DNA of 51,052 nt, taken from assembly GCA_003990765.1 (NCBI GenBank), contig RBNJ01000024.1, positions 1 through 51,052 on the forward strand. The letters are read 5' to 3'. Below the pieces are notes generated by a model, which was given only the letters and a program-made list of their open reading frames with translations, was not told where the DNA came from and searched no databases. Made by a program: the position numbers and the translations under genes. Source of the stretch: Jimgerdemannia flammicorona. Its lineage: Eukaryota. Shown here in pieces: positions 8,022-31,603 of this stretch. Position 1 is the first letter of the stretch. Each line of letters starts with the position of its first letter.

Positions 8022-8034
8022 AAGAAGGGGAGAG
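8022..8034 (+). promoter_or_regulatory. Polypurine tract
   Basis: AAGAAGGGGAGAG immediately before the TGTAAG start of the 3' LTR. Confidence 0.85.
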
Positions 8035-8035
8035 T

Positions 8036-10109
8036 TGTAAGCACACAACCTCCAAGCCACCAAAATTACATGTCACCCTCTGAACAAGCCACTGAAATCA
8101 CACACGACCTCCGAACAAATCTGGAAATCACCTGCTTGATCACAAAGCTGAGTCAAACTGAAGTCATAGTGCACAAAGCTGAGTCAATACAAAGTCACAG
8201 AACACAAGATCTACATAAACGGAACCTTACCAATTAGGACCAAATGCATATATACTGAGCACTGAGATGCGTCAAATCAGAGAACCAAAACAAACAACAA
8301 CCACAACTTCTAAACACACAAACATGACCACTGAGATCTACAACCGCATCCGTGCTGACATTTGGAATGCCATTGTCAACCGAGCCACACCCCCTCTACC
8401 CCTCATGAATATCCATAGCCTAGCACCCCTCTACTTCGTGGAAGCCTGATGGAATGCCCTGAACATGCTTAGTGAGGCCCACCGAATCGGACAAATCTCA
8501 AGCTACTACCAGATCGGCCACCTCCTAGAAGACATGATCGAACACCACCATAATACAGATATTACCCAGATGTCTCAACACCAGAAGCTCATCGCCTGCA
8601 AACATCGAGAACTCTTCTACGAGTACAACACCTTTATTCCCCGCCTCCGAGTCACTACCAGCGAAATGGTTGCTACCTTATCCTATGGCCAAATCGATGA
8701 CATGATATAAGAAATCAACTACAAGTACCTCGAATATGTCCAGACTACAGACAGAACCTTCCCGCACCCTGATGACCATATCCTACAAATGCCTCAAGTC
8801 AGATACGCCATGAAGGATGTCTATGATATAATCCACTTCGATGAAGACGAAGCAGAAGACAATGATCTCTCTGATGCCGACATGACCTCTAGCCAAGGAT
8901 CTCTGCCAACCCTGATCACTCCGCCAACCTTGCCAATGAACTTACAACAGTTCATAACTGCATACGAGACTTATTGGGACAATGACCACTGGCACGAATA
9001 CCAACCTGCATTCACTCCCGACTACTTCAACTACAATGAAGAGACCAGAGAACACAACCTGTACCTCCAGACAACCCTCGAGATTGAACCAACCACTCCA
9101 CCACCTGAGTACGAGTAACATGAACCACAGCCGCCAGCTTACTACAATCCTGCAACTCATAGTACTGTAACCTATAGAAGGTACGCAGACAGCGAATCCG
9201 ACGAAAGTGAAGACAATACACCCATCCTTCGCCCACCAATATCTTATCCAGCATACGAAACAGACGATGCTATCCTGTGGGATGGAGATGAAGTCCCAAT
9301 GTATTACTACCTCAGCCAACAAGGAGAAGTAATCCGTGAACCACTCTTCCTAGATGACTACTTCATCAGAGATGATGCAATCAAGAGTGATATCATCGAG
9401 GACTACCCAGACAGCACCTAAACCTATAAGTAGTCTAGCAGTCATAGTATAGATAGATTAGTCTTGTACGACATGACTGTGAACTGACTCAGCAGTCAGA
9501 CGATCGCTTGGCATGTCAGATCACACTTGTACTACGTGACTGCATTCCAACTCAACAAGGCACTTAGTGCTACATCCATATCTAGCATAGTCCAGATAGC
9601 CCCTCACTAGTATAAATACCCCCTCCCCCAGACCTCAGAATCTCAGACTTGAAAGACTTGAACAATCCGAACACAACTCCTGAGCACTTTTCCATAATAT
9701 CTCTTTACACAAATACTCCTAGTATAGCAATATCATGAATAGCAAATAAACCTATTCCATAACCCACAAACCACTCTTAAGTAAATCTGCTCCCTGTTAG
9801 GTCCTACTCCTAACCCCGTCACGAAATTTCCTAATTTGGTATTGTCTGCAGTGATACGCCAATTCAACTAAGCTGGTCTTAGTTTCCTGAACTTCCTGAA
9901 ATATGGAAAATCCTAAATATCCAGAACTAGTCCGAAAAAGGACTTTGGTTGAGACATCAACCCGATCTTGAAATCAATAAGCGTAGAGGACATACTCCAT
10001 ACGAAATTGATCTTGACCATAAAGAAAACGGTCTTCTAGCACATCCAGAATATCCAGAAAACCCTTCCAGAACTACATAATGGTCACTCTAAAAAGTAAC
10101 CCTCTTACA
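8036..10109 (+). repeat. 3' LTR of element 1 (2074 bp)
   Basis: TGTAAG...CTTACA inverted termini, preceded by the PPT; matches the 5' LTR. Confidence 0.95.
8324..9421 (+). pseudogene. 3' LTR copy of the U3-embedded ORF (365 codons, three premature stops)
   Basis: Track ORFs 8267, 8465 and 8789 share one frame. The stops at 8708 (TAA) and 9116 (TAA) are CAA and CGA in the 5' LTR; TGA 8447 is plausibly from CGA. Confidence 0.75.
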
Positions 10110-11950
10110 CTATTGCAATGTGGTGGAAGGGGATAGGCTCAATTCTTGATGACCTGGGTGCCTGGTCTTGCTGATCTTGTTTCTGTTTTTGGTACTTATT
10201 ATATCCTTTGACAAATTGGCACAGGTCTTCTTCCATCTTGGGCCACTATATAGTTCTTCTTACTTTGTCATATATATTAGTTTCTCCTAAGTATCCTTGC
10301 TCATGTACTTCCTTCATTACTTGATACTTCTTATATTTGGGTATTACTAGCTTTTCTCCTTTTCTGAGTGTAGTGTTATCTAGTTCAAACTGTTTTCAAG
10401 TCCAGTTGATAATAGAGATTGTCCAGAGTTTGAGGTGGTTGGGCATCTTCCACTGCCCAAAGTAGCTGATTAATCCATAGTATAGCTCTTTATTCATATT
10501 GAATAGTCTTGATAGAGGTGTTTCGGGGCATCCTTGAGAGTGTATCGGCATTGGTATTGGTCTTTCCTGAGTGGTGCTTAACAGTACAGTCATACTCTTA
10601 CAGCCTGTAGATTCATCTGGCATATATTTCTTTGAGGTTTAGAGTGTAGAATAGCTAGACAAGAGTGGAGTGGTCTGTTTGAATAGTGAAGTATTTTCTG
10701 GCTAGATAGTAGTGGAACTTGTCTACTGCCCAAAATACTGCTAACATTCAAGCTTGCATAACTTGTAGTTCTGTTCTACTCCATGGGTACCTTGGCTTGT
10801 ATAGGAGATGACATATTCATGTCCATCTTTCTTCTGAGCTAGGACTGCTCTAAGTCCTATAGCACTCGCATCTGTCTACAGGATGAATTCTAGGTTCCAG
10901 TCTGGTCTTCTGAGGATAGGTGCTTGGGTCAACCTGATCTTGAGTTCATTGAAGGTTTCTTGGTACTCCTTGGTCCATTCGAATTTGGTTTCCTTCTTCA
11001 GTAGCTTGTAGATAGGTGCTGCAATATTGGAGTATCCTTTGATGAACCTTCTGTAGTAGCTGGCCAGTCCAAGGAAGGCATAGACTTCTGTAGTTGTTCT
11101 GGGTCTTGAGTAGGCTGCAACAGCCTCAATCTTCATGAGGTCTGTGTGAATTCTGATCTGGTTGATGAGGTGTCCTAGATAGGTGATTTCTTGAGCTGCA
11201 AACTTGTATTTATTGGGCTTGATGTAGAGGCCATGCTCCTTGAGCTTCTTGAGGGCTAGCTGTATGTAATTGACATGTTCCCATATAGTGTTACTGAAGA
11301 TGATCATATCATTAATATAGACAAAGAGCTATTTTCCAATCTCATTGCTGAAGACTCTGTTCATCATTTGCTGGAAACTTGCTGGGGCATTGCACATTCC
11401 AAATGGCATTCACAGGTAGATATAGGTGGCATCAGATATGATGAAGGCTAATTTCTCACTAGCATCTTGAGTGAGACCAATCTGATAGAAGCCTGAGAAC
11501 AGATCTAAGGTGGTGTAGTATTTGGCTTTGCTTCTAAGGATGGTAAGGATTTCTTGAATATTTGGCAAGAGCTGCCTATCCTTCTTGGTGATGGCATTGA
11601 GCTTTCTGTAGTCAATGCAGAGTCTTGATGCAAACTCTCCAGATTTGCTTTCTTTCTTTAGGACAAGGACAATGGGTGAGTCCCAGAGGCTGATAGCTTG
11701 CTTAATGATTCCAGCTTCTTCCATTTCCTTGAGTTCTACTTGCAGCCACTCTCTGTAGGCAGGTGGTATGGGTCTGGCTTTCTGGTAGATGGGCTTGGTA
11801 TCACCAGTGTCAACTTCGTGGTAGTACTTGGGTTCTTGATTGTGGATATTCCTGAAGTCTGTAGCAAGTACTTCTTCATTCTGATGCAGGATCTTGAGAA
11901 GTTGTTCTTCCAGGGGAAAGTTTTCTCCAATAGTGTATGTATGCTTGTTC
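10110..11950 (-). pseudogene. pol: pol of element 2: RT, RNase H, start of integrase
   Basis: ORFs 11410..12102, 10876..11307 and 10396..10623 carry RT/RH motifs (FLGLASYYRRFI, APILRRPDW); many stops. Confidence 0.9.
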
Positions 11951-12009
11951 TGGTCCTTGTCTTTCTTGTGCTCAAGTTCAGTAATCTTGGTGGCAGCATA
12001 GACTCTTCT

Positions 12010-12425
12010 TCTAGTAGATCCAAAGCCTTGTTCTCCTCTCTTGATCTTGATGAGTTTGATGGCTTCTATGATCTTGGGCTTCTTGACTTTGTGAATCAGC
12101 ATCTGGCTAATCCTATCATGCTTCTTGACTTCAAATGGAGTGGTGGGGTTGTGATTCCTAATTATGAGAAAGATCTCACCAGTGTAATCAGGGTCAATTA
12201 CTCCTTCTTTAACTGAGATTTCGCTTTTGGCCAGACTGCTCCTAGTCTTGATAATTCTAGCATAGTTCTCTGGTAACTTGACTCCAATTCCAGTGCCAAG
12301 TAGGGTGGTGGTCTATGGTTTGAGGGTAGTATCTTGAATGCTGGCAAGATCCATTTCTATGACTCCTTCAGTCTTGTATTCTGGAATCTTGGCTTTGGGG
12401 TGAAACTTCTTAACCTTGAGAGTGA
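12010..12425 (-). pseudogene. dut: dUTPase domain between protease and RT
   Basis: LKVKKFHPKAKIP...MDLAS...RSSLAK...GVIDPDYTGEI...RISQML...RGEQGFGST. Confidence 0.9.
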
Positions 12426-12779
12426 TGTCTGATTCTTGTTCCTCCTCATAATTACTGTCAGCTTGAAGCTCTGGGGGCTGGTCATCTTCTTTGGCTTTTC
12501 TTTTTGCTTCAGTAACTTCTTGCTCATGTTTCTGTTGGCAGATTTTCCTGACTTCACTGATACAGGACCAGCAGTCATTCAGGTGTTCAGAGCAGTACAT
12601 CCTAGTACTATGGGGGCATCTTTCCTAAGAAGCATAGTCATTGATGATCTTGTTGTACCACTGCTCATCTGTGAGCTTGGGTGTCTTGTTCTTGTTCTTG
12701 TTCATCAAGTACATGAAGACCTCTGTGTCCTCTTCATCTCCTTCCTCCATGTCTGGTAGAACTCCTTTGTGGACATTGA

Positions 12780-14513
12780 TAGAGACTCATACCTTTCTCT
12801 CTCTATAGTTGATCTGTATCTTCTGGGCATTGAGGTCAATGATGACCTTGGCCTTGTGAAGCCATTGGTTGCCAATGAGGATGTCATAGTTGGTGGTACT
12901 TGTAACAATCACATCTACTAGGATAGTAGCTCCTCTTATCTTAATGGGGACTTCTCAGATTTTGCCAAGAGGGATAGCTCGTATACCATCTGCTGTAATA
13001 TAGACCATTTTGGTGGACTCTTCAACATCCCAACCTAGGCAGTCAATTGTCTTCTTGCTTATGAGGCATCCTCCAGCACTGGTATCAATGATAGCATCAA
13101 AGATACAGTCTTCAATCTGACATGGGGTATAGGCTGATGTCTTGTGCTGGTCTTCAGATTTTTCATCTGAGTTCTCAGATTCTTCCTGTACATTGTGAGC
13201 TTCTACAATCTTGTACTCTTGATTCTTAGCAGTAGTTACAAGTTCTACTCTCAACTACTGTCTAAAGGCAGGGACTTCGGCTAGTTGTCCAAAAGTGGCA
13301 TTAATCTTCTGTTCCTTGAGGTTCTTGTAGATATCATACTGGTGGATCTTGGTCTTGCACAGCTTCTGTTCCTTCTTGCTTTCACTTTCTCCTGAGACTG
13401 AAGTAGTGCCTTCAATGATTTGGCAGGCAGCTTCATTTAACTCCATGTCTTGATCAATCTTCTCTGGTTGAGTCTTGCTTTGAATAGTGATAGCTGGGGT
13501 CTTCTTTGGTCTTCCAACTGGCTTGCTGTTGCTCTTCTTGTCATAGGGCTTGGACTGGGTTCTGGTACCTTCAGTAGCAGGGTAGAATTCAAGCTCCTCA
13601 TAGTATTCTTCATCATCAGTATCACCAATCTCCTCAATGACTACTGTATTGGTTTGTTCTCTAGTTCTGCTAGCATTGCTTAATTGGGCTTTGCATCTTG
13701 TTTTGGTCATGCAATTCTTTGCATAGTGGCCTTCTTCTCTACATCTGAAGCATGTGATATTGTATTCTTCTATAGTGGCTGCAAATCTCTGTACTGGTCT
13801 CCTGTTGACACTTCAGACTTCTCTAACAATATCACCAGATGTACAGTCATCTTAGCAAACTGCTTGGTAAGTTCTTCTACTGGGTCAGCTTTGGCTGTCT
13901 TGGGGGTAAGTGGGGTTGGTTGTCTGTTTACAACTGTGGCAGATATGATACTAGTTAGCTTTGATGGCTCCATCTTGATGCCAGTTATTTTCTCCATTGA
14001 GTGTTTGGCAGAGTATCTGGCAGTCCAATATCTCTGTACAAAGACCACTTTCTGATCAAGGGTCAGTATAGCTAGGGTAGACTGAATTGCTAGGGCAATT
14101 TTAGAGTGAACTCCTTTAAGGAAGATTGAATCTGCTATTTGTTCCTTGAGGTGGTCATCATAGCCAGCCAAGACAATTTGGTGGCAGATTCGGGTATAGA
14201 ATAAGTTGGAATCTTCACTAAGTCCCTGGTAGATAGTATTGAGTTGATCCTTAAGAGCTTGCTTGATCTCTTCAGTATAGTATGTTGTTCTGAGGAAGGC
14301 CTTCATGTTGGCAAGTTTGGCTGTACTAGTATCAGTAATAGTGACTGCATTGAACTTGTCTCTGGCAGATCCTCTGAGGCTGACTAGTAGAAGGGCCAAT
14401 TGTACATCCACACTAAGGGCTCATATGGTGGCAAATTGTTCAAAGTCTTCAATAAAGGTCAGGATTGACTCTTCAGTAGTATATCCATAGAATATGGGGG
14501 GATGCATTTCCAT
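12780..14513 (-). pseudogene. gag: gag plus protease of element 2
   Basis: MEMHPPIFYG start; capsid-like ORF 13770..14411; zinc knuckle at ~13711-13756; aspartic protease-like AIIDTSAGGCLIS. Confidence 0.8.
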
Positions 14514-14633
14514 CTTATCTTGAATTCTTGCAGGGGTGACTCTTGTAGTCAGGGTAGTTTTTGTGGGGGTTGTTTATTTTTCAGCTTGAAAGTGAAGGAT
14601 TCGTCTTGAATCACCAGCCAATGGGCACTAAGT

Positions 14634-16120
14634 TGTCATGTAGTAGTCACTGAGTCCTTCAAATACACCAGATTCTCTTTAAGATATATCTCTTAGACTA
14701 ACTTAAGTTTATTATAAGCAAGTTCTTATTGGAGTGCCTTTCCAAGGTCTTATAGTCCTCAAACTTCTTATCTTTAACTATCTTGTTATCTTTTAGATGG
14801 CTTGTAAGGAATTGTGTATATTGCACTGAGTTGACTGACTTTATTTCAGAGGAAATAAGAGGGGTATTTATACAAAATATAATTTAATGGTTGCTAAGAT
14901 ATAAAGCTAAATATAAATTCCAATAACTAAAACTACTAAGTTCCAGGGTCAGTACTGATGGTTGTACAGATTCAGAATGCTGGTATAATTTGATATCATA
15001 TCAGAATACTGGTGCTGACATTATTCAGTATAACAAAGAACTTAGAGCAGAAAGTTCAGGACCATGGAGACTTCATCCTCATCATCAGAGGTCAGGATAT
15101 CTTCGAAGGAGATGAGGTCCATGAATATTTTGTCAAGATTACGTAGGTCGCATATTTCGCATATGTCAAAGTCACATGGAATAACATCATCACTAATGAC
15201 ATTATCACATTCAGTAATGATAGAAACAAGGAGATCTGGAGCTCTCCAGTCTATAAGGTTCTCTTCCACAAAATAGAGGACAAACATGAGATCTTGGAGA
15301 GGTCTAACCTGGATACTTGGGCCTTGGAATACTGAGATCAATCCTTGCAGGAATTGGTCTGGGTTGTTTTGGAGGATGGGGTGTCAGAAGTCTTCTACTT
15401 TATCACTATTGAGAGTGATAGTGAACTGGGCTTCTGTAGCTACCCTGACTTCTAGTGTATTAATACAGCAGGATGACAGGTCTCTGAAATCTGACACTCT
15501 AACATACTCTAAGTTGGAGATTGACCATGGTACATATGTACCTAAAGATCTGATGGATCTTCTTAGCTGTTCTTGTTTCACGTATATCCATAGAGATGGC
15601 ATCTTATAGCTCTTGAGTGCTGGCTTGTGGGAACTCCTGGCAGAGGAGGTTTCTTATTTTGTACTCCTGCCACATTTGGAGACATTCAGTAGCAATGGTG
15701 ATCCTTGTTTCCATTTTATGATGGTAGAGAATATAATGATAAGGGTTACCAGTACCCAGGTTGATACTAAGAGTCTTTCTTAAGCAGGTCCTCATGGCTC
15801 TTCTGATGTTTTAGAACATCCTTTCTTCAACTGAGGTGCCTTGGTGATTCCTTGACCTTGAGGTTTGGCAAGTGGCAGACATTTCATTTATGGTAAGTCT
15901 TTGAGCTATTTTAGGATTGGTGGGTCTTATTGGTTACTGCTACTGCAGTTTTTTAATTCTTCTTTTATATTCCTCGAGGTACTATACTATGGTCATAATG
16001 ACTCATAGTTGGTCATCATTGCTCATCTCATATGCTATATGATCTCCTTGTACTCTGATCTGGTGGCTTGTGAGGAAAGGCTGTCTCCTATACTAATGTC
16101 ATCATTCTGAGGTCACTGTT
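14634..16120 (-). repeat. Long 5' LTR of element 2 (outer end not resolved)
   Basis: CA end followed by ACT and a PBS-like sequence, as in element 1; TATA motif TGTATAAATACCCC at 14861-14874 (minus). The second LTR is not in the window. Confidence 0.6.
15042..15882 (-). pseudogene. U3-embedded ORF of element 2 (~280 codons, stops and one frameshift at ~15535)
   Basis: Joins ATG 15882 with ORFs 15604..15795, 15384..15602 and 15042..15341; acidic C-terminus; motif similarity to the element 1 LTR ORF. Confidence 0.6.
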
Positions 16121-16129
16121 ATATTATAT

Positions 16130-18075
16130 ATATATATACTAATATTGGAGCTCTTACTAGATTGATTACATAAGAGACCATAAGAACTACAGATTGAAGA
16201 AGTACTCTGAAAATTGAAAATCTTTATATATAATATAATAGTGGAGTTAGAAAGTATAGAAGATATAGATATTTTATATATAAAAGTCTTATATTATGAA
16301 GAAATGATAAGAGTAAAACTAAACTAGTAAAAATATAAAATAATAGATATTAGAACTGAATTAGAAGTGATAGAAAGATTTGAAAGAACAGTAGTAACTA
16401 GAGAGATAGTATTTTACTTAAGAATTTAGTTTTTAGTATATAAAATAGTACTATAGAAAGAATAGTAAAAAGAGATAGTACTGAAATAGAAAGAGGCTCT
16501 TATAAAATAGTCTGAGAGAACCTTCTTACTGATAGATAGAGTGACTGTTCTGAATGTCTATTAGTTATTTAAGTTATAGTATTTAGATTATTATCTAGAC
16601 TTTTCAGAGTAGATAACTTAGAGGCTAAAAAAGATAGTTAAGAGATAGTTGTAAAAAGAGAAGAGACTCTAAATTGGCTGAGATATAGTAGTGTTGAGAG
16701 CTACAGATAGTGGCTTGAGCCTAATTGACTTCTAGTATAGACTGAAAGTATTGAGAGACTAGTAGAAGTAAAGATTGATAAACTTAGAAGAGGAAAAGTA
16801 AAATAGATTAGTTAAGAACAATTGAGTATTATAGTTCTGTTTATAAGAAACTAAGTAGATAGATATAATAAGCTTACTTCAGATAGAGAGTATGAGCTAG
16901 TTATAATATAAGAAGTTCTGGTGAGATATAGTAAAGATCTGGCTAATTATAGGGCTGAGAATATCTAAGAAGATAAAGACAGATATAGGTCTAAGGTAAA
17001 GGTAGTAGAAAATAAAGTAGCTCTAAGTTAAAAGTAAATAGATGAAGAATATACTAGAAGAAGTAATAGAGTAACTGAGAATAGGACTACTAGAGAGATA
17101 TCCTATAAAGTGACAAAGATAGATATAAGTAAAGGCTAGATATAAGGTAAAGTATAGAGTTAGAGTGAGACTTTATAATATAGAGTACTATCTAGGTTTT
17201 AAGTAATATAATAGAAATTCTTGAGAAAAAATATGATATTAGAGTATAAGATAAACTAGATATATATCTAAGACTATTAAGAGTATAAATAGTATGAGAA
17301 AATTAGTAATAAGAAAGTACAGATGTTGAAATATATCTTGGCAGATTGTTGAGAGATAGAAGACTATTAGTAGTATCTAGAGGTCTACTAGAAAGATGAT
17401 AGTAAAAGAGTAAATAAGATAGTAGAGATAACTATTAGAAGAAGATTAGTAAAAGTAAAAGAGAATATATAGAGTAGAGTAAGAGAAATTCTTAATATAT
17501 GAGTTTTGATAATAATATACTAAAGATAAGTATTTAAAGAGAGATAGTAGATAGAAATTAGCAAGTTAATAAATAAGTGATAATAGTTGGTAAGAGAGAT
17601 GATCTAAGAATAATAATAGTAAGAGTAAGGACCTGAATAGAGACTCTGTAGAAAACTTGTAAAGATGAGAGATGTGGGCAATGAGTAGCTCACTGTAGGG
17701 TGGGTTTTAGCTATATGGGTAAGGCTGGCTGGCCATTGACTCTTTGTTTTTGAGGAGCAATAGCTGGGTTTATAGAAGAGATTATTGAGATGAAAGGAGT
17801 TGATAGGAGATTTACTGACAGAGTAGTAGGTTGAGTGGGGTCTCCAGAGTGGGTATTACTGCTACTTAGTAGAGAGAATCTGTGAGCAGAGTAGTAGAAG
17901 GGTAAAGATAATTAACAACCTAATGGTCTTTAATCAAGAAGATATAGGAGGGGGGGAGGGAGAAGTCTCTAGAGAGATTAGATAGGAGTGGGCTCAGTGT
18001 ATTATATATAAGATGGATGGAGATATTAATAAAGTCAAGTTCTTCGGGACCGCTGACACTTGAAAAAAAAAAAAT
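16130..18075 (+). mobile_element. Heavily decayed 5'-truncated L1/Tx1-like LINE
   Basis: Decayed translation resembles RVTVLNVYWLPKLWY..LDFPEW and GGLGLIDF of the LINEs at 47-51 kb; ends AATAAA, hairpin, poly(A) at 18028-18074. Confidence 0.7.
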
Positions 18076-18471
18076 TGAGATATTAATAAAAAAATAAAAA
18101 AAAAAAAACTTGTAAAGAAGATTTGTAAGTAGAGTAGAAGGAGAATTATGATAGTAGAGGAGATGGTAACTTTCTGAAGAGATAGAGAGAGAAGAGAAAG
18201 AACTGGCTCCTTGTAGGATTAAGTAAAAAATATATTTGTATTAGTATAACATAGACTAATTAGTAATAAAGTAGAAGTCTAAATAACTATAATAATAATA
18301 ATAATAATAATAATAATCTAAGAATAGTAATACTAAAAGAAATACTAAGATATAGATACTCTAAAAAAAGTAATAGAGGTGATACTAGAAAGTTGTAGGC
18401 AGTTTTTGTTTAGAGAAGAGAGAGTTTGATAGAAGAAAGAAATAAGTTAGATAGTAGAGATATATTAGGAT

Positions 18472-18831
18472 TAGTATTTCTAAATAAATTAAATTAATTT
18501 GAATTAAATCAAATTGAAAATTTTTAAATTTGAATTATATTGAAATCTGATTTAATTCAATCAAATTGAATTGAGGTCTAATTTAATTTAAAATATTTAT
18601 TCCAAATTTAAAATATAATAACTCAATAGAAATATATCCAAATTTAATATTCTATATTGTACTAAATTCTCTATTATATATAAAGTATATTGAATAAGCT
18701 AAAATTGAATTTTGAAAAATTAGATTTGATTTAGATTTCAAATTAAATTGAATTGAGTCTTAATTTGAATTAAATTAAATTAAATTAAATTAGAGATAAA
18801 TTTGATTCAATTCAATTCATTCTAAGTACTA
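18472..18831. mobile_element. MITE/foldback-type non-autonomous DNA element
   Basis: Imperfect TIRs TAGTATTTCTAAATAAATT and AATTCATTCTAAGTACTA; AATTG/AATTC subterminal repeats; shares internal sequence with 28551-28896 and 31604-31750. Confidence 0.6.
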
Positions 18832-19193
18832 GTCAGGATCAAGAGTTCTTAGGCTTTCTGTCTTATAGCCTCTAGTATGACTAATTGCTAGTATGGTAAG
18901 TAGATACTTTAATATATATAGATCAGAATAGACAGATTAATAAAGTGTTCTGGTATTTGTAATAATAATAATATATATATATATATTTAAATCTCAAACA
19001 TCTCAAGCTACTTATATCTAATAAACTATATAAATATATATTTGGGTGAATTTACCCCACAACTGTTATCTAGGTAATAACCATAGCCATGATAGTTTAT
19101 TCATACATACTGACAACTCAACTAGTCTAGCAATTTCATCACTAAACTACTCAGCTACCTAACCTTTGACTTCCTAGAACACAACTATATATA

Positions 19194-21237
19194 CTATGTG
19201 CCCATATTAAGTTTACATACTGAATTCAAAAGATCTTGAACCCATGGCAAACCTACATTCTCCACTATACTCCTAGCTATTATGTACCTATTAGGAAATA
19301 GCTTATCATATCTCACTTTAACTACACTGCCTTTTGCAACACTGCCCAGTCTGTTTGATGGAACCTCAACTACTACACCTAGCAACCTTCTCTCCACTAT
19401 GCTCTCCACCACTTGCCTAGATATGGGAAACGCCGACACTATGTACCATTTTGATGAAAAAATTGAGCTTTCACCATACTACTTTCTTCTGTGTCCATGT
19501 CGTAGTCAAAGTCCGCTTCCATCAAGTTCACCCTGATGTCTATCGACCTATCAGTTATTTCTTTCCAAAACAGCGTCCCACCAGGGTTGTATTGATCATA
19601 AGCTGCTGTAACTGATTGAAACACCACACCGTCTTGATGTACTCGCTGCGACTTCAACCTGCTTATATTCTCTGCTGTCACCCTGTGGTATATGGGCATT
19701 CTTATGCCAGCTCTCCGCATTGACCTCATACTTTGTTCGTCATCCACTAATGCGCTGATTCGAGTCGCCAAGTCACCTCGCATCATACTCTTGTCCTTAT
19801 ACACTACATCGAAACACCACCAAACTCTGTCCACAATCTCAACATCCAACACCATCTCACAAACTATGAACTCACTAAGCATCTCACAAGATCTAACACC
19901 CTCCCTCCCTATACGCACTATTGTCCCTCCTCTCATCACCGCCAGAGCTCTCTCTCCATCCATCATATTCCTAATAACATAAGCATCAGGGTGCATCGCT
20001 TCTGCCATATCTTCATCCAACAACATATTGTTCCTAACAGGGGGGCTTTGTAGGCAAGCCTCTCTCCTTAAGAAACGCAATTGTTTCAACTATCAACTTC
20101 CTTTCTTCACCAACAACTCCGACACGCTCCACTATCTCCATATCAGCACTTGTCGCTTCAAATTTCTCCATCTTCTTCGCCGCCTCATCAATAAGAACTC
20201 TAGTATCAATCGCTGGTTCACTAAGCAGCACAGGGGTCGTCGGCTCAGATATAGTGACATTGGTCTTGAGCCACTTGGTATTGATCGAAAACGTGCTTGC
20301 ACCTTGATACACCTTGGTTTCTCTCTTGATGATCTCTTCATCACAAGAAGCGATAACGGACAATGCTGATCCATCAAACACTATATTGTGGCCGATTTCA
20401 CTGGCCAGCTGCCTAGCGGGAAACTCATCCGGACCTCCTTCCCTCGGATACACCCAATTTGACTCAATCTTGTCCTTCTTCATTCCAACGTGTTTGTCTC
20501 TCGCCTCATCAATGTCTGTGAATGCCACAATCCTCCTCTTCTTCGACAACACTCTACTCAGAATTTCCTTCATGCTGCAGAAAGCCTCCTTGTCATCCAC
20601 CGAACAGTTATAACTAAAACCGAACACTACAGCATCATACTGATAGTCATCCATCATTATGCTCCATGATGTTCTATCCTTCAAAACACCACATTCAGCC
20701 GCATTTGGTGACTCTGCTTCAGCTCCTGATACTTCTTCTTCGACTCGGCTAGACACTCTTGACAATGTCCTACCACTGTTAGACGCCTAACATGTGCTTG
20801 CTCGTAGATCTCATAGTCACACATTGTCTCTCCAATTTGCAGAACGTCGAACTGCGATGGCAAGTACTGTTTTAATACAATTGCTTTGCACATCTTGTTA
20901 CTCATCGCCTTGTTGCTGCCGTAATCCCGTGTCTTCTGGATGCAGTTGCTCTGTTAATTTCAAACTTTCTAGGCTCAATAGGCTTCAACGCATAGTACTC
21001 TTCACTCTCCACTAAGCCCTTGTATTCTTTCACCGGAAAGGTCGTAGGTTGCATCAATCTCCCGAGCACATATTCTTCTTGTTTCGTTAACACCATATCC
21101 AACGCTTCCTTTATCTTCTCCGCCCCAATGCCTTGCTTGTTGTCGCCGTTTTCCTCTTCCTCCGAATCGCTGTCAAAGAAATCGTCATCGTAGTCATCTG
21201 CACAGAACCTTGTGACACTGACTTTAGAATTCCACAT
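19194..21237 (-). pseudogene. Intronless mRNA-capping-enzyme-like fusion (N-terminal guanine-N7 methyltransferase-like, C-terminal guanylyltransferase/OB-like); four frameshifts; candidate endogenous viral element
   Basis: MTase-like: RR-MSNKMCKAIVLKQYL (cf. R.FNNWIKS.LI), DVLQIG, YDAVVFGFSY. GTase-like: YVIRNMMDGER (motif I), VLDVE (III), CFDVV (IIIa), DGVVF (IV), LFWK...SIDI (V), KVRYDKLFPN (VI). Confidence 0.72.
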
Positions 21238-21648
21238 AGATGGAGCTTATACAATAAAACTCGGAAGCTTACAAGTGATTTCGCACTCATAAACCCTTGT
21301 TTTACGTTATAATTGAATAAACTATATATTAAGGACTAAATATTTAAAAAAAGTCTACTATTAAAAAACCTTTTCAATTATTTACTAAAGCAATTTGAAA
21401 TATTGTTCAGCTGTACTATATATGAGCTCGAGTCCTGTAATATTTGACAAAAACCATGTGAAGTTAAGCAAGCAGTTCGCAAACCAGCAAACGTGGAACG
21501 TAGCTTCAAGCCACTGTGACCGGTAAATTCAGGTGATAGATTTTGGTCATGTGATGCTGTCATTACTATACACAGATGAAACAAGCACACTTGGATTCCC
21601 CCTCTTCCCGCCGATAGCTCATTAACGTCAATATAATTACATATCGAC

Positions 21649-23501
21649 ATGGACACATTGCAGTTGCGCGGAACTCTCGTAGGTGTGTGGAATCATTTTC
21701 TAAAGAGATTAATAGATGAATAATGGATGGATAATGGATGGATGGATGCAAATATTAACAGTTGGTTCCTGGAGTTGGATGGATATATTTCGTGAATGAG
21801 GATTCGTTAATGTAGGTCAAGGGTAGGAGGGCACTAATCACTAATCTCAGATACCTACTCATTCTTCTCATTGCCTATTGAACAACGTAGGTCATCGTGG
21901 TTGGGTCACGGCTATCGCCACATCCTCCGAAGCCCCTGATATGGTCTTGTCTGCCTCTCGTGGTATGTGACGTCAGGTGCTACCACCGCTTGAGCCCGTT
22001 TGCGAAACTAGCGATCAGCAAGCGAGTAAATTCCTTCGCACACCACTTTGGGCGGGAGATTTTTCCGGGTTTACTAGAACGCATGATTGCAAATCATGGT
22101 TTAAGGTTTCCTTATACCAGTCTGACAAGAACAAATTTTAACATATCCTACTTGTGTCTTTGTTCCAACACCCTTTCATGTCATCTTGGTCACTGTTAGA
22201 CAAGTCCATCATCGTTTGGCAGTTGACTAGGTATCCATCTCACTAAACATATTCTAGGTCCTCTTTTGGCTTATGAAGCGAAGCTGCCATAAGTTCATGT
22301 GATTGTTCTCCTGCTCCCAGTGGGACAGGGAGCTCACGATTGCCCTATTGGTTTTGGTATTAGGGATGAAACGAACTATGGCTTGCCACGCAAAGCCCTT
22401 CTCGGCCACAATCACTTTGTTCAAGACGTGGTAATCTCCTCGGATGGCCAGTTCGCCCTATCTGCCTCTTGGGACAAGACTTTACGCCTCTGGGACCTGC
22501 ACAACGGCACCACGACCCGTCGCTTCGTAGGCCACACCAACGATGTTCTCTCGGTCTCGTTTTCTGCTGATAACCGCCAGATCGTCTCCGCCTCCCGCGA
22601 CAAAACCATCAAGTTGTGGAACACCCTCGGTGAATGCAAGTACAACATTCAGGAGGATGGACATACTGAATGGGTCTCGTGTGTCCGATTTTCACCGAAC
22701 CCGGCCAACCCCGTCATCGTATCCGGAGGATGGGACAAGGTTGTCAAGGTATGAATAGCTCGACCATTCTGACTGAGGCCAATTTCATGAATGATGTCAC
22801 GAAATATATTTGCTACTTCAGAGCAGGATTAGATTCTTGCTATGAGACAAATTTCCACATTTACTGACATGACTGAACATTTAACTCATTGCGTTGGCAT
22901 ACATATTTTGCATACGTTACTGTTACTACATCATTAACAACGGCTTCCAAATCTTGCATTTTTGTACGTAGGTCTGGGAACTTACGAAATGCAAGCTCCG
23001 TACGAACCACATTGGGCACACTGGCTACATTAACACTGTTACCGTTTCGCCTGATGGTTCTCTGTGCGCCTCTGGTGGCAAGGATGGCATCGTGATGTTG
23101 TGGGATCTCAATGAAGGCAAGCACTTGTATTCCCTCGAGGCTGGGGATATCGTCAACGCCCTAGTTTTCTCCCCCAACCGCTACTGGTTGTGCGCCGCTA
23201 CCGCTGCCGGCATTAAGATCTGGGATCTTGAGTCCAAGTCGATTGTCGATGAACTCCGGTAGGCACATGAATTTCTTTCATTTTCTAGTAGAATACCGGA
23301 GAAGATATCGGATATTTGCTCCAATTCAAAAATCATTACTCATTACTCTTACTCCACCATAGCCCCGAGTTCCTTGATAAAGGGAAGCGGTCCGCCGATC
23401 CTCAGTGCGTTTCTCTTGCCTGGTCTGCGGACGGCACGACCTTGTTCTCTGGTTACACGGACAACCTCATTCGCGTGTGGCAGGTTACCCGTTCTCTCTA
23501 G
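21649..23501 (+). CDS. cpc2: RACK1/Asc1/Cpc2 WD40 ribosomal scaffold protein; exons 21649-21682, 21891-21962, 22200-22230, 22364-22748, 22972-23258, 23363-23501
   Basis: Spliced translation [21 protein letters not shown]...[32 protein letters not shown]...[12 protein letters not shown]...SLAWSADG; all introns GT-AG. Confidence 0.97.
22785..22872 (+). ncRNA. snR24: Box C/D snoRNA, U24/snR24 family, in RACK1 intron 4
   Basis: Terminal stem TCATG/CATGA; C box ATGATGT 22791; guide ATATTTGCTACTT plus D' CAGA, matching yeast snR24 as I recall it; C'-like ATGAGA; D box CTGA 22864. ASC1/cpc2 introns are the known host. Confidence 0.85.
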
Positions 23502-26450: not shown

Positions 26451-27334
26451 AACTCTAACAGACGAAAAAAGTGCGCTACTTCTAGCCGTCATGTCTCAGC
26501 GCTCTCTCCATACGATGGCTAATACTCCTTGGTTGTCATGTCATGAACCAGCAGTAGCTGATATTAACAATAAGAATACATTGTTCTTCGAAAGAGTAGA
26601 AGTTTTACCAGAACATTTCAATTGGTCTAGAGAGAAATTTAATTGCCTTGACATATAGTACAACTCCTATATAATATATATGTGAAACTTATTTATATTG
26701 TAACGTGCTGGCTCAATAGAGGCAAATTACAAGGTTGGGGTGCTATGTAGTTTGGCTTGAGCCCCCAGTTACTTTGTTAAAAAGCCACAAAATGTTTTAA
26801 GATTCCTGGTATCTTTGTTGGTATTTAGTAGTATAATAGTCAAATCTGGATATCCGCAGATGATTCTGGTGATTTCCTTATTGGGACAGTTCTTGGGTAT
26901 AGCAGCAATTTGTATTACAGTCTCAGTGAGTGGGTTTTCTTATGCAATTTCTATATGACAATCTCTTGTATAGTATTAACAATCTCTGTATAGTGCAATG
27001 ATCTTCAAAAGTATACAATTTCTGATATACATAACAATCTTGGCAATCTAATATAATACAGCAAATTAGCAATATTTCTTAATAAGTGGTAGGTTGGCAG
27101 ATAACTTGAATGATATGAATTTTCTTAAATCAGCAGACTTCTTGAATAATAATAACTCAGATAATACAGATTTTCTCCTTTTTAATAAAGTTACATCAGA
27201 GACTGACTTCATTTATATGGAGTTATATCAAAGAACTAACTCTACTATAAAGTTATATCAAATAGACTGACTTTGTAGTATAATAGACTTCTCAAATTCT
27301 TCTGAATTAAATTGAATCAAAGGTCTAATTTGAT

Positions 27335-28510
27335 ATCTCTTTCTCCACTACCTTACTAGTTATAAGGTTTGGTAGACAACCTTTCAAGTTCCCTTTTCTC
27401 TATTATTATCCCCTCTACCTTAAGTTGGTTTACTGTGCCTGCAAGAGTATAGTGGGAGAGAGACAATGGTAATGAGTTGCCCTTTTATCAATATCAGATT
27501 AGTGTCTTCTCTACTTTTTCATAGTTTCTAATACCTTTGGCTATATGTATCTGGAGTATATCTGTTTTGGTATAGTGCCTTCTTCTTTTTGTCATCACTA
27601 ATAAGGTGTTGTCTTAGTATTTTACAAGCTATATACATAGGGAGTCAGCTGACCTTAGATATCAAGTACTCAGTATAGGTTATCTACAGGTTCTCAGTAT
27701 TTATGGTAGAGCTCTCTGGCTTTGGTGAGCTTCCCAGCAAGCATAGTTCTGATATAAGTAACTGTTTTTTAGATGATATTAGGATGAGAGAAGAGATGGC
27801 CATTATAGATAAGAGAAAGAATAATAATAGTAAACTAGTAGGATATCAGGCTAGAGGTAGTCATCAGAACTGGGATGGGTGCTGCTTTGGTGGGGTCTTT
27901 TGATTGGTACAGAGTAGTTAGGTGATAGATATCACTCTTGGCTACTTCTGGCAATTTATAGAGTTGAGCCCTAATCATTGAGGGTGACTAGAGGGCCTAA
28001 GGCTACTCAGGTTAGATATCTTAGCTACATATACTCAACTAGAACTAAGAGCTGATATAGCAATATGATCAAGGCCTACAGACTTGAGTAGTGGGATATT
28101 GGAGATCTCTTCTCATCTTATATATAAGTTTTCTACTTATCTTGCTTAGGAGAACTAGACTCTACTCACTATTTTGTATCTTGAGAAGGATTTTTTTTTT
28201 GTCTGTCATTTTTATTTGGGGTTGCAAGGAGCTATTCTATTTAGCTTAGACATAGTCTTATATATATATTGGAGTTTCAGATGTATGCTTTCAGTTATTG
28301 GCATATGGTCAATTTTTCCCTGGTAATAGAGAGAGTATAATATGCAGAATGAGATGTAGACCACATTCAGCCCTGCTGCACCTGGTATGGTCAAGCTGCT
28401 GGACAATAGTTAGTCTAGGTTTAATGAGAGAGTAGTAGTGAGGGAGAGTTTTGGTCTATATAGTCTAGGTTTCCTTTCAATAAAAATCTATAGGACTCTG
28501 AGTCTGTAAA

Positions 28511-28549
<39 letters not shown>
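27335..28549 (+). mobile_element. Retroposed insertion ending in poly(A), flanked by a target-site duplication
   Basis: AGGTCTAATTTGAT at 27321-27334 and 28550-28563; AATAAA ~28479; long A tract to 28550. Confidence 0.7.
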
Positions 28550-28550
<1 letters not shown>

Positions 28551-28552
<2 letters not shown>

Positions 28553-28896
28553 TCTAATTTGATTTAATTCAAATCTAATTTGATTTGAGATTCAATTTGA
28601 ATTCTATTTTTTGAAATATAATAACTTGACAAAAATATATCCAAATTTAATAATCTTTAGCCTATTAGATTTCTCTATATAAGAGAAATTTAATAAACTA
28701 AAGATCATTAAATTTAGATATATTTTCATCAAGTTATTATATTTCTAAAAAATAGAGTTTAAATTGGACTCTCAATTTGATTCAAATTTGATTCAATTCA
28801 AACTTAATTCAAATTAAAAAATCTCCAATTCAATTTGATTCAAATGACTCTCAATTTGATTTAATTTAAATTGATTCAATTTATTTAAGAGTACTA
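28551..28896. mobile_element. Foldback/MITE element containing a long imperfect palindrome
   Basis: Arms are symmetric about ~28678 (TTTCTCT...AGAGAAA; TATAATAACTTGA/TCAAGTTATTATA); terminal GAGTACTA at 28889-28896. Confidence 0.75.
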
Positions 28897-29969
28897 ATAG
28901 TAGATTTCTCTTCAAAGCTTTATATTGAAAAGTGAATTAAAGTAGAAAGTAAGCTTATAATCTTCTAGTAATAGCTTTAGAGCAGGTGTTTCTCCTAAGT
29001 GTTGCAATCCTTTTCCTTTAGGATCAAGTGGCTTTTAGTAAGTATATCTCTCAAAGTATAGTAGGTAGACTTGTTTTTTGCTTTTGAACTTTCAGACTGA
29101 GATTTATTCACTCTTATCTTTGAGATATTTTATATAGATTAGTTGCTATCTAGTTATTATATAGCTAAGTATAGATTTATCATTCTTAGTAATATTTAGA
29201 TGTATTCTTCAGATATAGATATATTTGTAGAGTATGGTATATCTATTAGATATACTGTATATATTGAGATATAGATCAATAGACCTGATTTAGTATCTTA
29301 GCTAATTATTAGTAATAGTATATATAGTTAACTAAGTATTAGTAACTATATTATACTAAGTATTTATATCATCTGGTTATACTATATTATTTACTCATTT
29401 GCTTATTACATCAGTCTTTACTAAAGAGTAATCTATCTCTAGACTATTCTTTAGTTATTATTATAATAATTATAAGTATCTTTAATATCTATATCTATAC
29501 TATTAACTTTATCAATATCTGAGTCACTTTATTTAAGAAGTTCTTCTTTTTTCTCAGAGAAAAAAACTTCAACATAGTTGATAATACTCAGATAAGTAGT
29601 TATAGTTATCTTCTAGAAGTTATTTAGAGTAAACTAGGCTTGGGTCAATGCTGTGATATTTTATTTATAAATTATATAGAGCCTGTCTATAGTAATAGTA
29701 TTCCTTTAAGACAGACCAGTAGTATTACAGATGTAGCTCTCTTCTAGAGCTAAAAGGTTTTGCAATAGTTGACTGATTATATAGTAAGCCTATAGTTGGT
29801 AAATCTACAGTTAACATTCTACCAAAATAAGGTTTCTTGATATATCTAGATCTGTTAGAGGTAGGTCTCATTAGTTTTTTAAAATTAGAGTCAGAAAATT
29901 AGTAGGGCTTAGAAGAAACTGATAATAAGGATTTTCAATCCTTGATTCATAGTATATAGAGAGATAAAT

Positions 29970-30190
29970 CTTAAGACAATTGATATATATTAGTATCCTC
30001 AGAGTTAATCTATTCATGCTTCTTAAATAAATACTAGTTCTTCTGATATTGTATACAAGATAAGGTTCTTCTCATTTAGGCTCTAGTTTAGTAATAAAGT
30101 TTGTCTCAATTATACTTCTCTAAACTAGTACTTAATCTCTAATTTTATTAAAATATCTTAGTTATATAGTAACTTGATATATAGTAGCAC
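29970..30190 (-). pseudogene. Gypsy/Ginger-type integrase C-terminal (GPY/F) remnant
   Basis: IRD*VLV*RSIIETNFITKLEPK*EEPYLV resembles GD.VLL...KLEPKWEGPY.V. Confidence 0.55.
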
Positions 30191-30479
30191 AGTCAATCTT
30201 TATCTATATTATCAATTTTAATATATAAAAGTATGACTTACTTAATTAATAAATAATTACTTCTTGCTTTACTTATTCTTTCTAACTCTATAATAAAAGA
30301 TTATGAGTCTTACTAATAAAAGTAGATACATAATAACAAAAATATCTCTTTAATATATACTATACTATATTATATAATATCAACTAATACTAGCAGTAGA
30401 AGTATACTAGTTCCAAATAATATAAGCAGAATAAGATCCAGAATAGATACTAGTAATATAAATATATCTATTATAATAG

Positions 30480-31603
30480 TTATAACTATAATTATTCCTA
30501 TAGCAATATTAACAATAATAGTAAAGAGGATAATTTCTGTCTTTGATAGTAAAGACTATACTATATGAGTATACTATATAAAGAATCTCTTAGAAGAATA
30601 TAGTCTAGAGGACTATTAGAAGCCACAGATACAAATAATAGTATATAATACTGGAAAGGATTATAAAGTACTAAGAGAGATTATATTCACTCTTTCAAAT
30701 ATATAAATAAAACTTATCATTAATACTACAATAGCAAATAAAGTCTGAGAAATCTTATATAATTATTATCAACAGGTATCTATATTAAATAGATTCTATC
30801 TAAAAGCACAACTGTTTAATCACTGAATAAAGTTTAAAGAGAATATCTGGAACTATATCAATTATATCAATAATCTAATAAATTAAGTAAATTCTCTTTC
30901 TATGTCAGCAGATCTCATCAAGAATTAAGACAAGGTTCTGGCTCTTATACATAGCCTTCCTGAGGTATATAATATAGTTATCACTACTATAAGAGAATCT
31001 AGTAAGTTAGATATATCATTATAAGTCTTTTAAATAAGAAATTGAGGCTGGTCAGCAATAACAATAAAGATGATAAGAAAGCATTCTACAGAGTACATAG
31101 ATGAGTCAAAGATAAGTAAGACAAAGGATGAGAGCAAAGCCAGCAGCATAATAGTTAGTATAATAGTCAATGAGCTAAATTTGATATTAAATACTTTTAC
31201 TATAATAAGCATAGATACTATGAGCAAAACTATAACTATAAAAAGAAGAAAAAAGACAAGCAATATAGACAGATAAATATTGTAAATATCAATAATAATA
31301 AAGATAGCAGAGGCAGCAGAGGTCTATTCTTTATAGAAGTAGCAATTTATCTACATAGAGACAAATATAGGAGCAAATTCAGAAACTATTTTTATACTAA
31401 CAAAAAATGCTCTAACTACTAGTCTCACTAGTTTCAGTACTAGTACTAATGTAAGCTATATATCTAGTAGTATAAATATATATAGCAAAGAGATCTGGCT
31501 TATAGATTTTAGTATAATACAGTATATATATAATAGTATACTGTAAGTGATTCTCTATATATGAGATATTTGAGCACCCCATATCCATTAAACTGAGTAA
31601 TAA
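30480..31603 (+). mobile_element. Ty1/Copia gag-protease remnant, heavily decayed
   Basis: Decayed DKVLALIHSLPEVYNIVITTI (gag), a degenerate knuckle, and WLIDFSIIQYI...IKLSNN resembling WxxDSGAT.H...IkLgD; cut by the MITE end at ~31604. Confidence 0.55.

Follow-up and report, generated by a model that had tools for sequence, protein, structure and literature searches.

In fungi, the enzymatic domains responsible for mRNA capping are known as separate proteins, and triphosphatase-guanylyltransferase-methyltransferase fusions are found in cytoplasmic DNA replicons. Trypanosomes possess Cgm1, a catalytically active bifunctional enzyme composed of a guanylyltransferase (GTase), which comes first, and a methyltransferase (MTase), with no triphosphatase. 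The capping enzyme of NCLDV has been described as a three-domain protein (PMC3493329), and the domain order of K2Orf3p, encoded by pGKL2, as the same as that of vaccinia D1 (10.1101/325316).

The locus described here lies in a 51,052-nt stretch of contig RBNJ01000024.1 of Jimgerdemannia flammicorona (hereafter the window). Five abutting ORFs of the minus strand (19194-21246) yield a read-through of approximately 680 aa (Table 1). According to the ORF listing of the window, each adjacent pair overlaps by 37-103 nt, and the five can therefore be joined by small frame changes, with no intron. Each ORF is free of stops in its own frame, as against 4-33 stops in the two other frames, and the purine share at codon position 1 (0.58-0.74 across the five) reveals coding periodicity. 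The overlaps and the periodicity agree with an earlier note, made from the letters alone, which had joined these ORFs into a single product requiring no splicing. A neighbouring host gene carries several introns, whereas the candidate is intronless. The CpG observed/expected ratio is 0.72 in the candidate gene and 0.83-1.0 in the host-gene stretches of the window, as against 0.05 in the AT-rich block (16001-19000) and 0.07 in the retroelement (10001-16000); the retention of CpG next to repeats that have lost it, also pointed out in that note, was thus borne out. The GC content (0.446) is host-like. The window contains a single copy of the gene, which borders a block of repeats and has retroelements next to it.

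Table 1. ORFs (pieces) and frame breaks of the capping-like locus; positions refer to the window
Feature	Positions	Strand	Remarks
Piece 1, 114 aa	20902-21246	minus	ATG 21237-21235, acidic stretch; tail is a possible N-terminal edge of the MTase-like domain
Piece 2, 90 aa	20681-20953	minus	Cap-MTase-like region around motif I; degenerate SAM loop VLQIGETMCD 20816-20845
Piece 3, 250 aa	20034-20786	minus	MTase-like motif IV/post region (YDAVVFGFSY...), remaining MTase-like domain, linker
Piece 4, 216 aa	19439-20089	minus	GTase-like nucleotidyltransferase domain; motif I MMDGER 19949-19966; motif V FWKEITDRSID 19538-19570
Piece 5, 94 aa	19194-19478	minus	OB-fold C-terminal domain; motif VI RYDKLFPN 19290-19313; stop codon 19194-19196
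Frame break A, piece 1 to piece 2	20905-20953	minus	Piece 1 stop overlaps piece 2 ATG as ATGA, 20902-20905
Frame break B, piece 2 to piece 3	20684-20786	minus	Within the MTase-like domain
Frame break C, piece 3 to piece 4	20037-20089	minus	Run of six C in the overlap
Frame break D, piece 4 to piece 5	19442-19478	minus	Run of six T in the overlap

As judged from profile comparisons, the C-half of the read-through is a real, very remote homologue of mRNA guanylyltransferases. The reference profile (A2) comprised 14 Pfam-verified guanylyltransferases, all of which match PF01331 and 13 of which match PF03919. Profile-profile comparison aligned A2 with piece 4 over 157 columns (probability 91.3%, P 9.6e-7), which confirmed the similarity to capping enzymes that had been proposed by eye. 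With pieces 4 and 5 joined by an X, the hhalign match to the GTase profile covered 238 columns (probability 92.9%, P 3.7e-7); piece 5 alone gave P values of 0.0043-0.008. The GTase-profile score of 53.9 was reached by none of 60 shuffled sequences (14.4 +/- 2.6), the reversed sequence scored 12.6, and 17 other ORFs of the window, used as controls, did not exceed 19.7. A profile of bacterial ATP-dependent ligases (25 LigD-type ligase ORFs) matched piece 4 with a P value of 0.031, as compared with 9.6e-7 for the GTase profile, and on this evidence piece 4 is closer to guanylyltransferases than to the bacterial ligases.

Motifs I, III, IIIa, IV, V and VI of the candidate are colinear and in register with those of the 14 guanylyltransferases, both in the hhalign comparison and in a MAFFT alignment (A3), although the identity of piece 4 to any reference GTase is as low as 14-20% (A3) and the Gly of motif III is replaced by Val. 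The motif order given in the earlier note is therefore correct, but the lack of a lysine in motif I (MMDGER) had been missed. Among Pfam models, mRNA_cap_C (PF03919) matched piece 5 below its threshold (E 0.043; 15 bits, with a cut-off of 26.5 bits), and PF01331 matched none of the five pieces at E <= 10. The Atlas neighbours of piece 4 are ligase and capping-enzyme clusters (scores 0.95-0.91), 12 of the 30 being DNA_ligase_A_M, with a top score of 0.95. An AlphaFold2 model of piece 4 alone was unusable (pLDDT 31). When the prediction was guided by A3, the pLDDT rose to 72.9 and the top Foldseek rows were a mixture of ligases and capping enzymes; these matches do not constitute independent evidence, because the GTase alignment imposes the fold.

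Support for the N-half is weaker, and we regard it with corresponding reserve as a remote homologue of cap guanine-N7 methyltransferases. Using hhalign, piece 2 was aligned with the cap-MTase profile A1 over 68 columns (P 4e-4) and with A4 at a P value of 0.019, while piece 3 matched the cap-MTase profiles with P values of 0.029 and 0.013, colinearly with piece 2. The two pieces joined by an X at the break gave P 1.7e-4 (score 37.0), and the whole read-through gave P 6.9e-5, with the alignment beginning in the last residues of piece 1. This is the same alignment to Abd1/poxvirus-type MTases that had earlier been made by eye, now recovered with modest significance. None of 60 shuffles reached the observed score (14.8 +/- 2.0), the reversed sequence scored 16.9 and the 17 control ORFs at most 19.8. 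A generic class-I MTase profile gave the N-half a score of 22.5 (P 0.013), as against 37.0 with the cap-MTase profile; true cap MTases match the generic profile with P values of 1e-13 to 1e-18. Piece 1 alone matched neither the cap-MTase profile (P 0.41) nor any family of Pfam, PHROGs or NCBIfam. For the N-half as a whole there was no Pfam match at E <= 10 (PF03291 included) and no support from PDB or Atlas searches; with piece 3 the Atlas search reached a recognition value of 2205, below the 2300 mark, and returned no usable match.

Catalytic residues are missing from both halves. The motif I lysine, which forms the enzyme-GMP adduct and is conserved in all 14 references, is Met in the candidate (K42 of A3), a replacement for which a single base change suffices, and the first lysine of motif V, likewise essential, is Phe (K174 of A3). 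At five columns of A3 (K42, K174, P177, N181 and F185) the candidate alone deviates. In the MTase-like half, SAM motif I is degenerate (VLQIGE-TMCD opposite the VLDLGCGKGGD block), with loss of the acidic residue and the glycine loop, and the column of the motif II Asp holds Gly. Without the lysines of motif I and motif V and without its SAM-binding motifs, the encoded protein could not cap RNA, and the locus, judged by these residues, is a relic and not a working capping enzyme. The loss of catalytic residues had been overlooked in the first reading of the DNA.

On the minus strand, the MTase-like part (20037-20953) lies upstream of the GTase-like part (19197-20089), whereas the GTase precedes the MTase in all 87 reference ORFs that contain both domains. 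No triphosphatase signal was obtained when all pieces and the read-through were compared by hhalign with the N-terminal 290 columns of an alignment of 24 giant-virus sequences (P 0.22-0.80), a domain so divergent that a remote relative could escape such a comparison. The MTase-then-GTase order without a triphosphatase, which had been singled out as unusual, is thus unusual indeed. Neither an MTase-then-GTase fusion nor an endogenous element derived from a capping enzyme in fungi is mentioned in the portions of the literature searched, which included parts of PMC7017919, PMC10224137 and 10.64898/2026.06.19.733378. An MTase-like-then-GTase-like architecture devoid of catalytic residues would be new.

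Searches for relatives of the candidate were negative. A phmmer search with piece 4 against 1.84 billion representative proteins, with no length limit, detected no relative (E <= 1e-3); the only match (E 3.9e-4), a tandem-repeat protein of 920 aa aligned in 7 stretches, was rejected as spurious. No relative was found (i) for piece 4 among 730 candidates from longer proteins (none at E <= 0.01), (ii) for piece 3 among 715 candidates of near length, (iii) for piece 5 among 97 candidates from longer proteins (E <= 10), or (iv) in IMG/VR, either among 12 pattern stretches found with piece 3 or among 597 stretches found with alignment A3 with the candidate placed first. A PDB sequence search with pieces 2, 3, 4 and 5 gave nothing or noise (E 0.25-0.74), and Pfam, PHROGs and NCBIfam models (E <= 10) matched the five pieces at the level of noise, with the exception of mRNA_cap_C.

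The stretch was found in one sequencing run, X1, and in none listed as RNA; the contigs of X1 provided a check on the frame breaks. One contig spans break A (20832-21001) and two span break B (20597-20861), in both cases with 0 differences, which confirms the DNA at these positions. The X1 contigs fall within 19246-21260, near the ORF limits, and leave parts of the stretch uncovered, breaks C and D among them. As these two breaks lie in homopolymer runs outside the X1 cover, they may be assembly errors, in which case the damage to the gene would be smaller than the sequence suggests. One X1 contig skips 113 nt (20860-20972); the skipped segment has the intron ends GC-AG (GCAAGTA...CTTTCTAG) on the plus strand only, i.e. 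antisense to the ORFs, and on that strand no ORF of more than 39 aa runs across it. The locus may be transcribed, at least partly in the antisense direction. To judge from the reading frames, full-length protein is not made from the locus as now encoded.

The surroundings of the gene revealed little about its source. In 18 context ORFs no viral domain was detected other than those of retroelements, no polymerase or capsid gene was found in the window, and none of the 9 plus-strand ORFs showed a Pfam family at E <= 1. The flanks carry no terminal repeat, direct repeat or target-site duplication, and there is no poly(A) tract downstream of the stop. A retrocopy of the host CEG1/ABD1 genes is thus not indicated by the indirect evidence, which also includes the 14-20% identity of piece 4 to the reference GTases and the lack of a phmmer relative for this piece. 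Comparison with virus-like and cell-like GTase sub-profiles did not discriminate between the two. The MTase-like half scored 37.0 with standalone Abd1-type MTases and 15.7 with the giant-virus trifunctional type, and the GTase-like half likewise scored higher with standalone GTases than with the trifunctional type. The proposal of the earlier note that the gene had been captured from a virus or cytoplasmic replicon gained no direct support from these analyses, as there is no viral neighbour, insertion signature or IMG/VR relative, and the composition is host-like. A viral or plasmid origin is nevertheless plausible.

The reading that we prefer, and to which we assign an even chance, is that the locus represents a recently frame-broken relic of a single-copy, intronless, orphan capping-like fusion protein that was already non-catalytic. 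The original gene would have encoded one polypeptide of about 680 aa, composed of an acidic head, a cap-MTase-like domain, a linker, and a GTase-like nucleotidyltransferase with an OB domain. Its inactivation would be recent, because the frames carry no stop except at the four frame changes. Enzyme function would have been lost earlier, while selection still kept the frame open, since several of the catalytic replacements cannot be reached by a single base change and the lack of stops suggests that they preceded the breaks. The protein would thus have been a pseudoenzyme, perhaps a binder of cap or GTP. With less assurance we trace this fused, intronless orphan gene next to the repeats to a mobile element or cytoplasmic replicon foreign to the host, rather than to the host capping genes. 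In a more specific version, which we put forward tentatively and consider somewhat unlikely, the locus would be the sole trace so far of cytoplasmic replicons or mobile elements of fungi belonging to a lineage not yet sampled, whose MTase-GTase module without triphosphatase had turned into a non-catalytic cap/GTP binder before capture and breakage.

Several other explanations have to be weighed against the preferred one. The gene may be a home-grown paralogue, i.e. the host lineage's own cap MTase and GTase genes were duplicated and fused long ago, and the product evolved rapidly as a non-catalytic protein and was recently broken in this strain. Pseudoenzymes often derive from duplicated genes, the GC content and the CpG ratio are host-like, neither viral genes nor an insertion signature accompany the locus, and both halves score better with standalone enzymes than with the trifunctional type. 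However, the candidate is intronless beside an intron-bearing neighbour, its identity to every reference GTase is very low, an in-frame fusion of two unlinked genes would be rare, and orthologues would be expected in related fungi, whereas piece 4 found no relative among the representative proteins; we consider this origin unlikely. Lower still we place the view taken in the earlier note, that of an endogenous copy of a capping enzyme that was active in a virus or cytoplasmic replicon as yet undescribed, if it is assumed that the catalytic residues were lost after integration. Cytoplasmic replicons typically carry their capping domains on one protein, the gene is an intronless orphan adjoining retroelements, and the motif I lysine could have been lost by one base change. 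Yet the losses extend to the motif V lysine, the motif II acid and the whole SAM loop, and there is no in-frame stop, although neutral decay on this scale should have introduced many of them; the window, moreover, lacks a polymerase, capsid or other viral gene. Post-integration decay is thus disfavoured, and this scenario seems decidedly improbable.

The converse case, in which the gene is unbroken and encodes a working non-catalytic protein, assumes that the assembly is in error at the homopolymers of breaks C and D and that breaks A and B are handled otherwise (piece 1 could be, for example, an upstream ORF, given the ATGA overlap of its stop with the start of piece 2). Breaks C and D do coincide exactly with the C6 and T6 runs outside the X1 cover, and the X1 contigs end close to the limits of the ORFs. 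This is very unlikely all the same, since break B is located inside the MTase-like domain and is reproduced by two X1 contigs without differences, the one splice junction observed has canonical ends only when read antisense to the ORFs, and it is a guess that X1 represents RNA. Least probable of all, and by our estimate hardly credible, is that the locus has no relation to capping, its C-half being a DNA/RNA ligase-like nucleotidyltransferase or a chance resemblance. The best Atlas neighbours are indeed DNA_ligase_A_M clusters, ligases and capping enzymes are intermixed in the top Foldseek rows, and the Pfam capping-enzyme models remained below their cut-offs. Against this stand the P value of 1e-6 with the GTase profile as compared with 0.031 with the ligase profile (the latter covering bacterial LigD-type enzymes only), the features of motifs V and VI and the sole Pfam match, all of capping-enzyme type, and the shuffles and control ORFs, which fall far below the observed scores.

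If the preferred interpretation is true, the locus provides a new example of a pseudoenzyme derived from a capping enzyme. Should relatives appear in other fungi or viromes, it might point to a lineage of viruses or plasmids not yet known, or to cap-binding proteins of a new class; a single broken copy carries little functional weight by itself. A precedent, by analogy and not by sequence, for a dead GTase-like fold retained as a cap binder is the cap-binding domain of snurportin-1. Chains 3nc0_B and 5dis_C of CRM1-snurportin complexes, which we take to be snurportin itself, occupied ranks 19 and 29 among the Foldseek matches to the piece 4 model, but as this was built on the GTase alignment the matches are not independent evidence. 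Snurportin recognises the trimethylguanosine cap (PMC2736588), and by analogy the candidate protein perhaps bound a cap.

Of the known systems, the standalone GTases (PF01331 + PF03919; Ceg1/chlorovirus type) have the same domains, motif order and spacing as the candidate. Twelve columns of A3 (Y37, D44, G45, R47, E84, D94, R110, D153, G154, W175, K176 and D184) are common to the candidate and all 14 GTases, and motif VI is of the RxDK..PN type in both; the candidate differs in having Met in place of the nucleophilic Lys and Phe in place of the first motif V Lys, and in being fused behind an MTase-like domain. The cap guanine-N7 MTases (PF03291; Abd1/RNMT type and standalone viral enzymes) give a colinear profile match of modest significance to the candidate from the N..K..L helix that precedes motif I, across motif I itself, to motif IV/post, but in the candidate motif I has lost its acid and glycine loop, and the motif II acid is likewise not conserved. 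The trifunctional enzymes (those of giant viruses, poxvirus D1 and K2Orf3p of the yeast linear plasmid) resemble the candidate in combining GTase and MTase on one polypeptide. They are arranged as triphosphatase-GTase-MTase, whereas the candidate has the order MTase-GTase, no triphosphatase signal and lower profile scores with these enzymes than with the standalone ones. Trypanosome Cgm1 is, like the candidate, a two-domain fusion without a triphosphatase, but its domains are in the opposite order and, unlike those of the candidate, they are active.

The five minus-strand ORFs of the candidate locus (pieces 1–5, from the N- to the C-terminus) overlap their neighbours by 37–103 nt and, read in succession, give approximately 680 residues, as the earlier note had proposed for five abutting frames. 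Each piece is free of stops in its own frame, whereas the other two minus-strand frames carry 4–33, and the first codon positions are purine-rich (fraction 0.58–0.74). Thus, this DNA is coding or recently coding, and chance is excluded. None of nine plus-strand ORFs over the candidate matched a Pfam family at E ≤ 1, no second copy was present within the window, and no direct or inverted repeats were found flanking the locus. Its CpG observed/expected ratio (0.72, versus 0.05–0.07 in the adjacent repeats and 0.83–1.0 in host-gene stretches) agrees with the claim that CpGs were kept here and lost in the adjoining transposon DNA.

Features of the window around the candidate locus
Feature	Position	Strand	Remarks
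Gypsy-type retroelement	1–10 kb		pol (RVT_1, RNase H, integrase) at 4664–7018
Second retroelement	10–16 kb		with dUTPase domain
AT-rich block	16–19 kb		adjoins candidate
Candidate, pieces 1–5	19194–21246	minus	five ORFs of 114, 90, 250, 216 and 94 aa
Implied GC-AG intron	20860–20972	plus	113 nt, GCAAGTA...CTTTCTAG; antisense to candidate ORFs; one contig of run X1
RACK1-like WD40 gene	21650–23500	plus	head to head with candidate
Another reverse transcriptase	49409–51052	minus	

The RACK1-like gene, which begins approximately 400 bp upstream of the candidate's ATG, contains several introns (roughly 60–240 nt) and is apparently intact. The pol of the retroelement at 10879–14420 (minus strand) carries a dUTPase domain (PF00692, E 3e-17) beside the reverse transcriptase, accompanied by a zinc-knuckle gag; a CpG ratio of 0.07 at a GC content of 0.41 indicates that CpG was lost there without general AT enrichment. 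The AT-rich blocks 16001–19000 and 27001–38000 (GC 0.21–0.34, CpG ratio 0.02–0.05, TpA/ApT ratio 1.1–1.26) show degenerate similarity to one another and to the retroelement parts of the window, and resemble copies of repeats that have mutated heavily. Across retroelement sequence at 1–10000 and 45001–51052 the two strands differ strongly in composition (GC skew −0.2 to −0.5).

Standard searches yielded little. The sole Pfam match of the candidate was sub-threshold (mRNA_cap_C, piece 5, E 0.043, 15 bits; cut-off 26.5), and sequence searches of the pieces against PHROGs, NCBIfam and PDB returned only noise. Word-based searches by length class of a 5.8-billion-cluster collection revealed no relative of pieces 3, 4 and 5. 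The lone phmmer match of piece 4 among 1.84 billion representative proteins, a tandem-repeat protein, was rejected as spurious. In a language-model Atlas piece 4 adjoins DNA_ligase_A_M and mRNA_cap_enzyme clusters (0.95–0.91); piece 3 gave no result.

Reference sets were assembled from pattern searches. A degenerate SAM-loop pattern of cap guanine-N7 methyltransferases identified 12 IMG/VR loci, which by Pfam are standalone PF03291 enzymes and triphosphatase-guanylyltransferase-methyltransferase proteins; the alignment built from them retrieved 41 loci, including 24 distinct ORFs of at least 900 aa. A pattern for guanylyltransferase motif V detected 118 metagenome stretches, with DNA for 80, the ORFs of which were classified with purpose-built HMMs as nucleotidyltransferase, OB and methyltransferase (55), nucleotidyltransferase and OB only (22) or others (3). 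Two further alignments comprised 14 standalone guanylyltransferases (PF01331 in all 14, PF03919 in 13) and eight standalone methyltransferases (PF03291 in all eight). One metagenome contig (L150, ORF 2–1267, minus strand) encodes a 422-aa guanylyltransferase with giant-virus-type motifs that, unlike the 55 trifunctional ORFs detected in that scan, lacks an in-frame methyltransferase part.

Comparison with the standalone guanylyltransferases matched piece 4 over 157 columns (probability 91.3%, P 9.6e-7) and piece 5 on motif VI (P 0.008); the two joined by an X (the C-half) matched over 238 columns (probability 92.9%, P 3.7e-7). The score of the C-half was 53.9, against 14.4 ± 2.6 for shuffled sequences (0 of 60 as high) and 12.6 for the reversed sequence; none of 17 other ORFs in the window exceeded 19.7. 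Weaker matches were observed with the giant-virus trifunctional set (P 2.4e-4) and a profile built from 25 ATP-dependent ligases of bacteria (P 0.031). MAFFT by itself placed the candidate motifs in register with the references (MMDGER with KxDGxR, LDVEIV with DGEL, CFDVV with the FD/YD column, DGVVF with DGLIF, and FWKEITDRSIDI with KWKP..N[TS][VI]DF), with 12 columns invariant in all 15 sequences, and profile comparison of pieces 4 and 5 aligned RYDKLFPN with RxDK..PN. The motif order recognised earlier is thereby borne out, and the C-half, as judged from these alignments, is a guanylyltransferase homologue.

The N-half (pieces 1–3) less surely resembles cap methyltransferases. For piece 2 the profile reproduced exactly the alignment previously made by eye, although its significance was modest (P 4e-4 with the IMG/VR-derived alignment; P 0.019 with the eight standalone enzymes). 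Piece 3 matched the motif IV/post region colinearly with piece 2 (P 0.029 and 0.013, respectively). Pieces 2 and 3 joined by an X scored 37.0 (P 1.7e-4; entire read-through, P 6.9e-5), compared with 14.8 ± 2.0 for shuffles (0 of 60 as high), 16.9 for the reversed sequence and at most 19.8 for control ORFs. The N-half matched a profile built from 26 generic class-I methyltransferases of bacteria only at P 0.013 (score 22.5), whereas true cap methyltransferases do so at P 1e-13 to 1e-18, which suggests that the candidate keeps the cap-methyltransferase-specific part without the general SAM-binding signature. Across approximately 80 profile comparisons in total, the guanylyltransferase result withstands any correction for multiple comparisons, and the methyltransferase result does so only narrowly.

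Catalytic residues are replaced in both halves. The nucleophilic lysine, present in all 14 references, is Met in the candidate, the first lysine of motif V is Phe, and at P177, N181 and F185 the candidate is the sole deviator among the aligned guanylyltransferases; in the methyltransferase-like half the motif I acidic residue, the glycine loop and the motif II acid are all substituted. The replaced residues are known from established work to be essential in this superfamily, and the encoded protein is predicted to be a non-enzyme. Since Lys to Phe and loss of the whole SAM loop each require several base changes, they would predate the frame breaks, when selection still held the frame open, which would make the ancestor of the candidate a pseudoenzyme.

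Breaks A and B (between pieces 1/2 and 2/3) show no difference in the covering contigs of sequencing run X1; B falls within the methyltransferase-like domain. Break C (3/4) lies in a C6 run and break D (4/5) in a T6 run; both are outside X1 cover and may thus be slippage mutations or assembly errors. The five frames contain no stops except where the frame changes, from which we infer that inactivation was recent. The TGA of piece 1 overlaps an ATG in the piece 2 frame as ATGA (20902–20905, minus strand), a stop-start arrangement as in coupled translation of compact genomes; this may be a coincidence, as the methyltransferase-like alignment seems to start ahead of that ATG.

X1, which we guess to be RNA, covers 19246–19402, 19634–19834 and 20597–21260, near the ORF limits. 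One contig omits 113 nt, with canonical ends, within a 3-base ambiguity, on the plus strand alone; no ORF of more than 39 aa on that strand spans this interval. In the minus-strand reading, the omission happens to bring pieces 1 and 2 into one frame, a one-in-three coincidence. If X1 is RNA, transcription is at least partly antisense and non-coding.

The observation of the earlier note is confirmed and its domain reading largely right. As regards origin, a foreign source, such as the endogenous viral element proposed there, fits an intronless orphan, next to an intron-rich neighbour, with capping domains on one fused protein, but viral neighbour genes and insertion marks are absent in the window and the composition is host-like; viral origin is unproven. 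We lean towards the reading that the gene was captured from a replicon or mobile element not yet sampled; its position bordering a repeat block also favours a foreign source. Against a foreign source stand, in addition, the dead catalytic sites and the failure of guanylyltransferase sub-profiles to separate virus-like from cell-like affinity, and such capture has a serious rival in a home-grown fusion that evolved fast.

The triphosphatase part of giant-virus enzymes matched no piece (P 0.22–0.80). In all 87 reference ORFs with both domains (for the most part from giant viruses, duplicate loci included) the guanylyltransferase precedes the methyltransferase, an order also described for NCLDV, vaccinia D1 and the yeast plasmid enzyme (PMC3493329; 10.1101/325316). 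The literature covered by the searches yielded no description of the reverse order, methyltransferase then guanylyltransferase, which the earlier note had not recognised either. The candidate represents known domains in a new variant arrangement: reversed in order, predicted to be non-catalytic and present as one broken copy.
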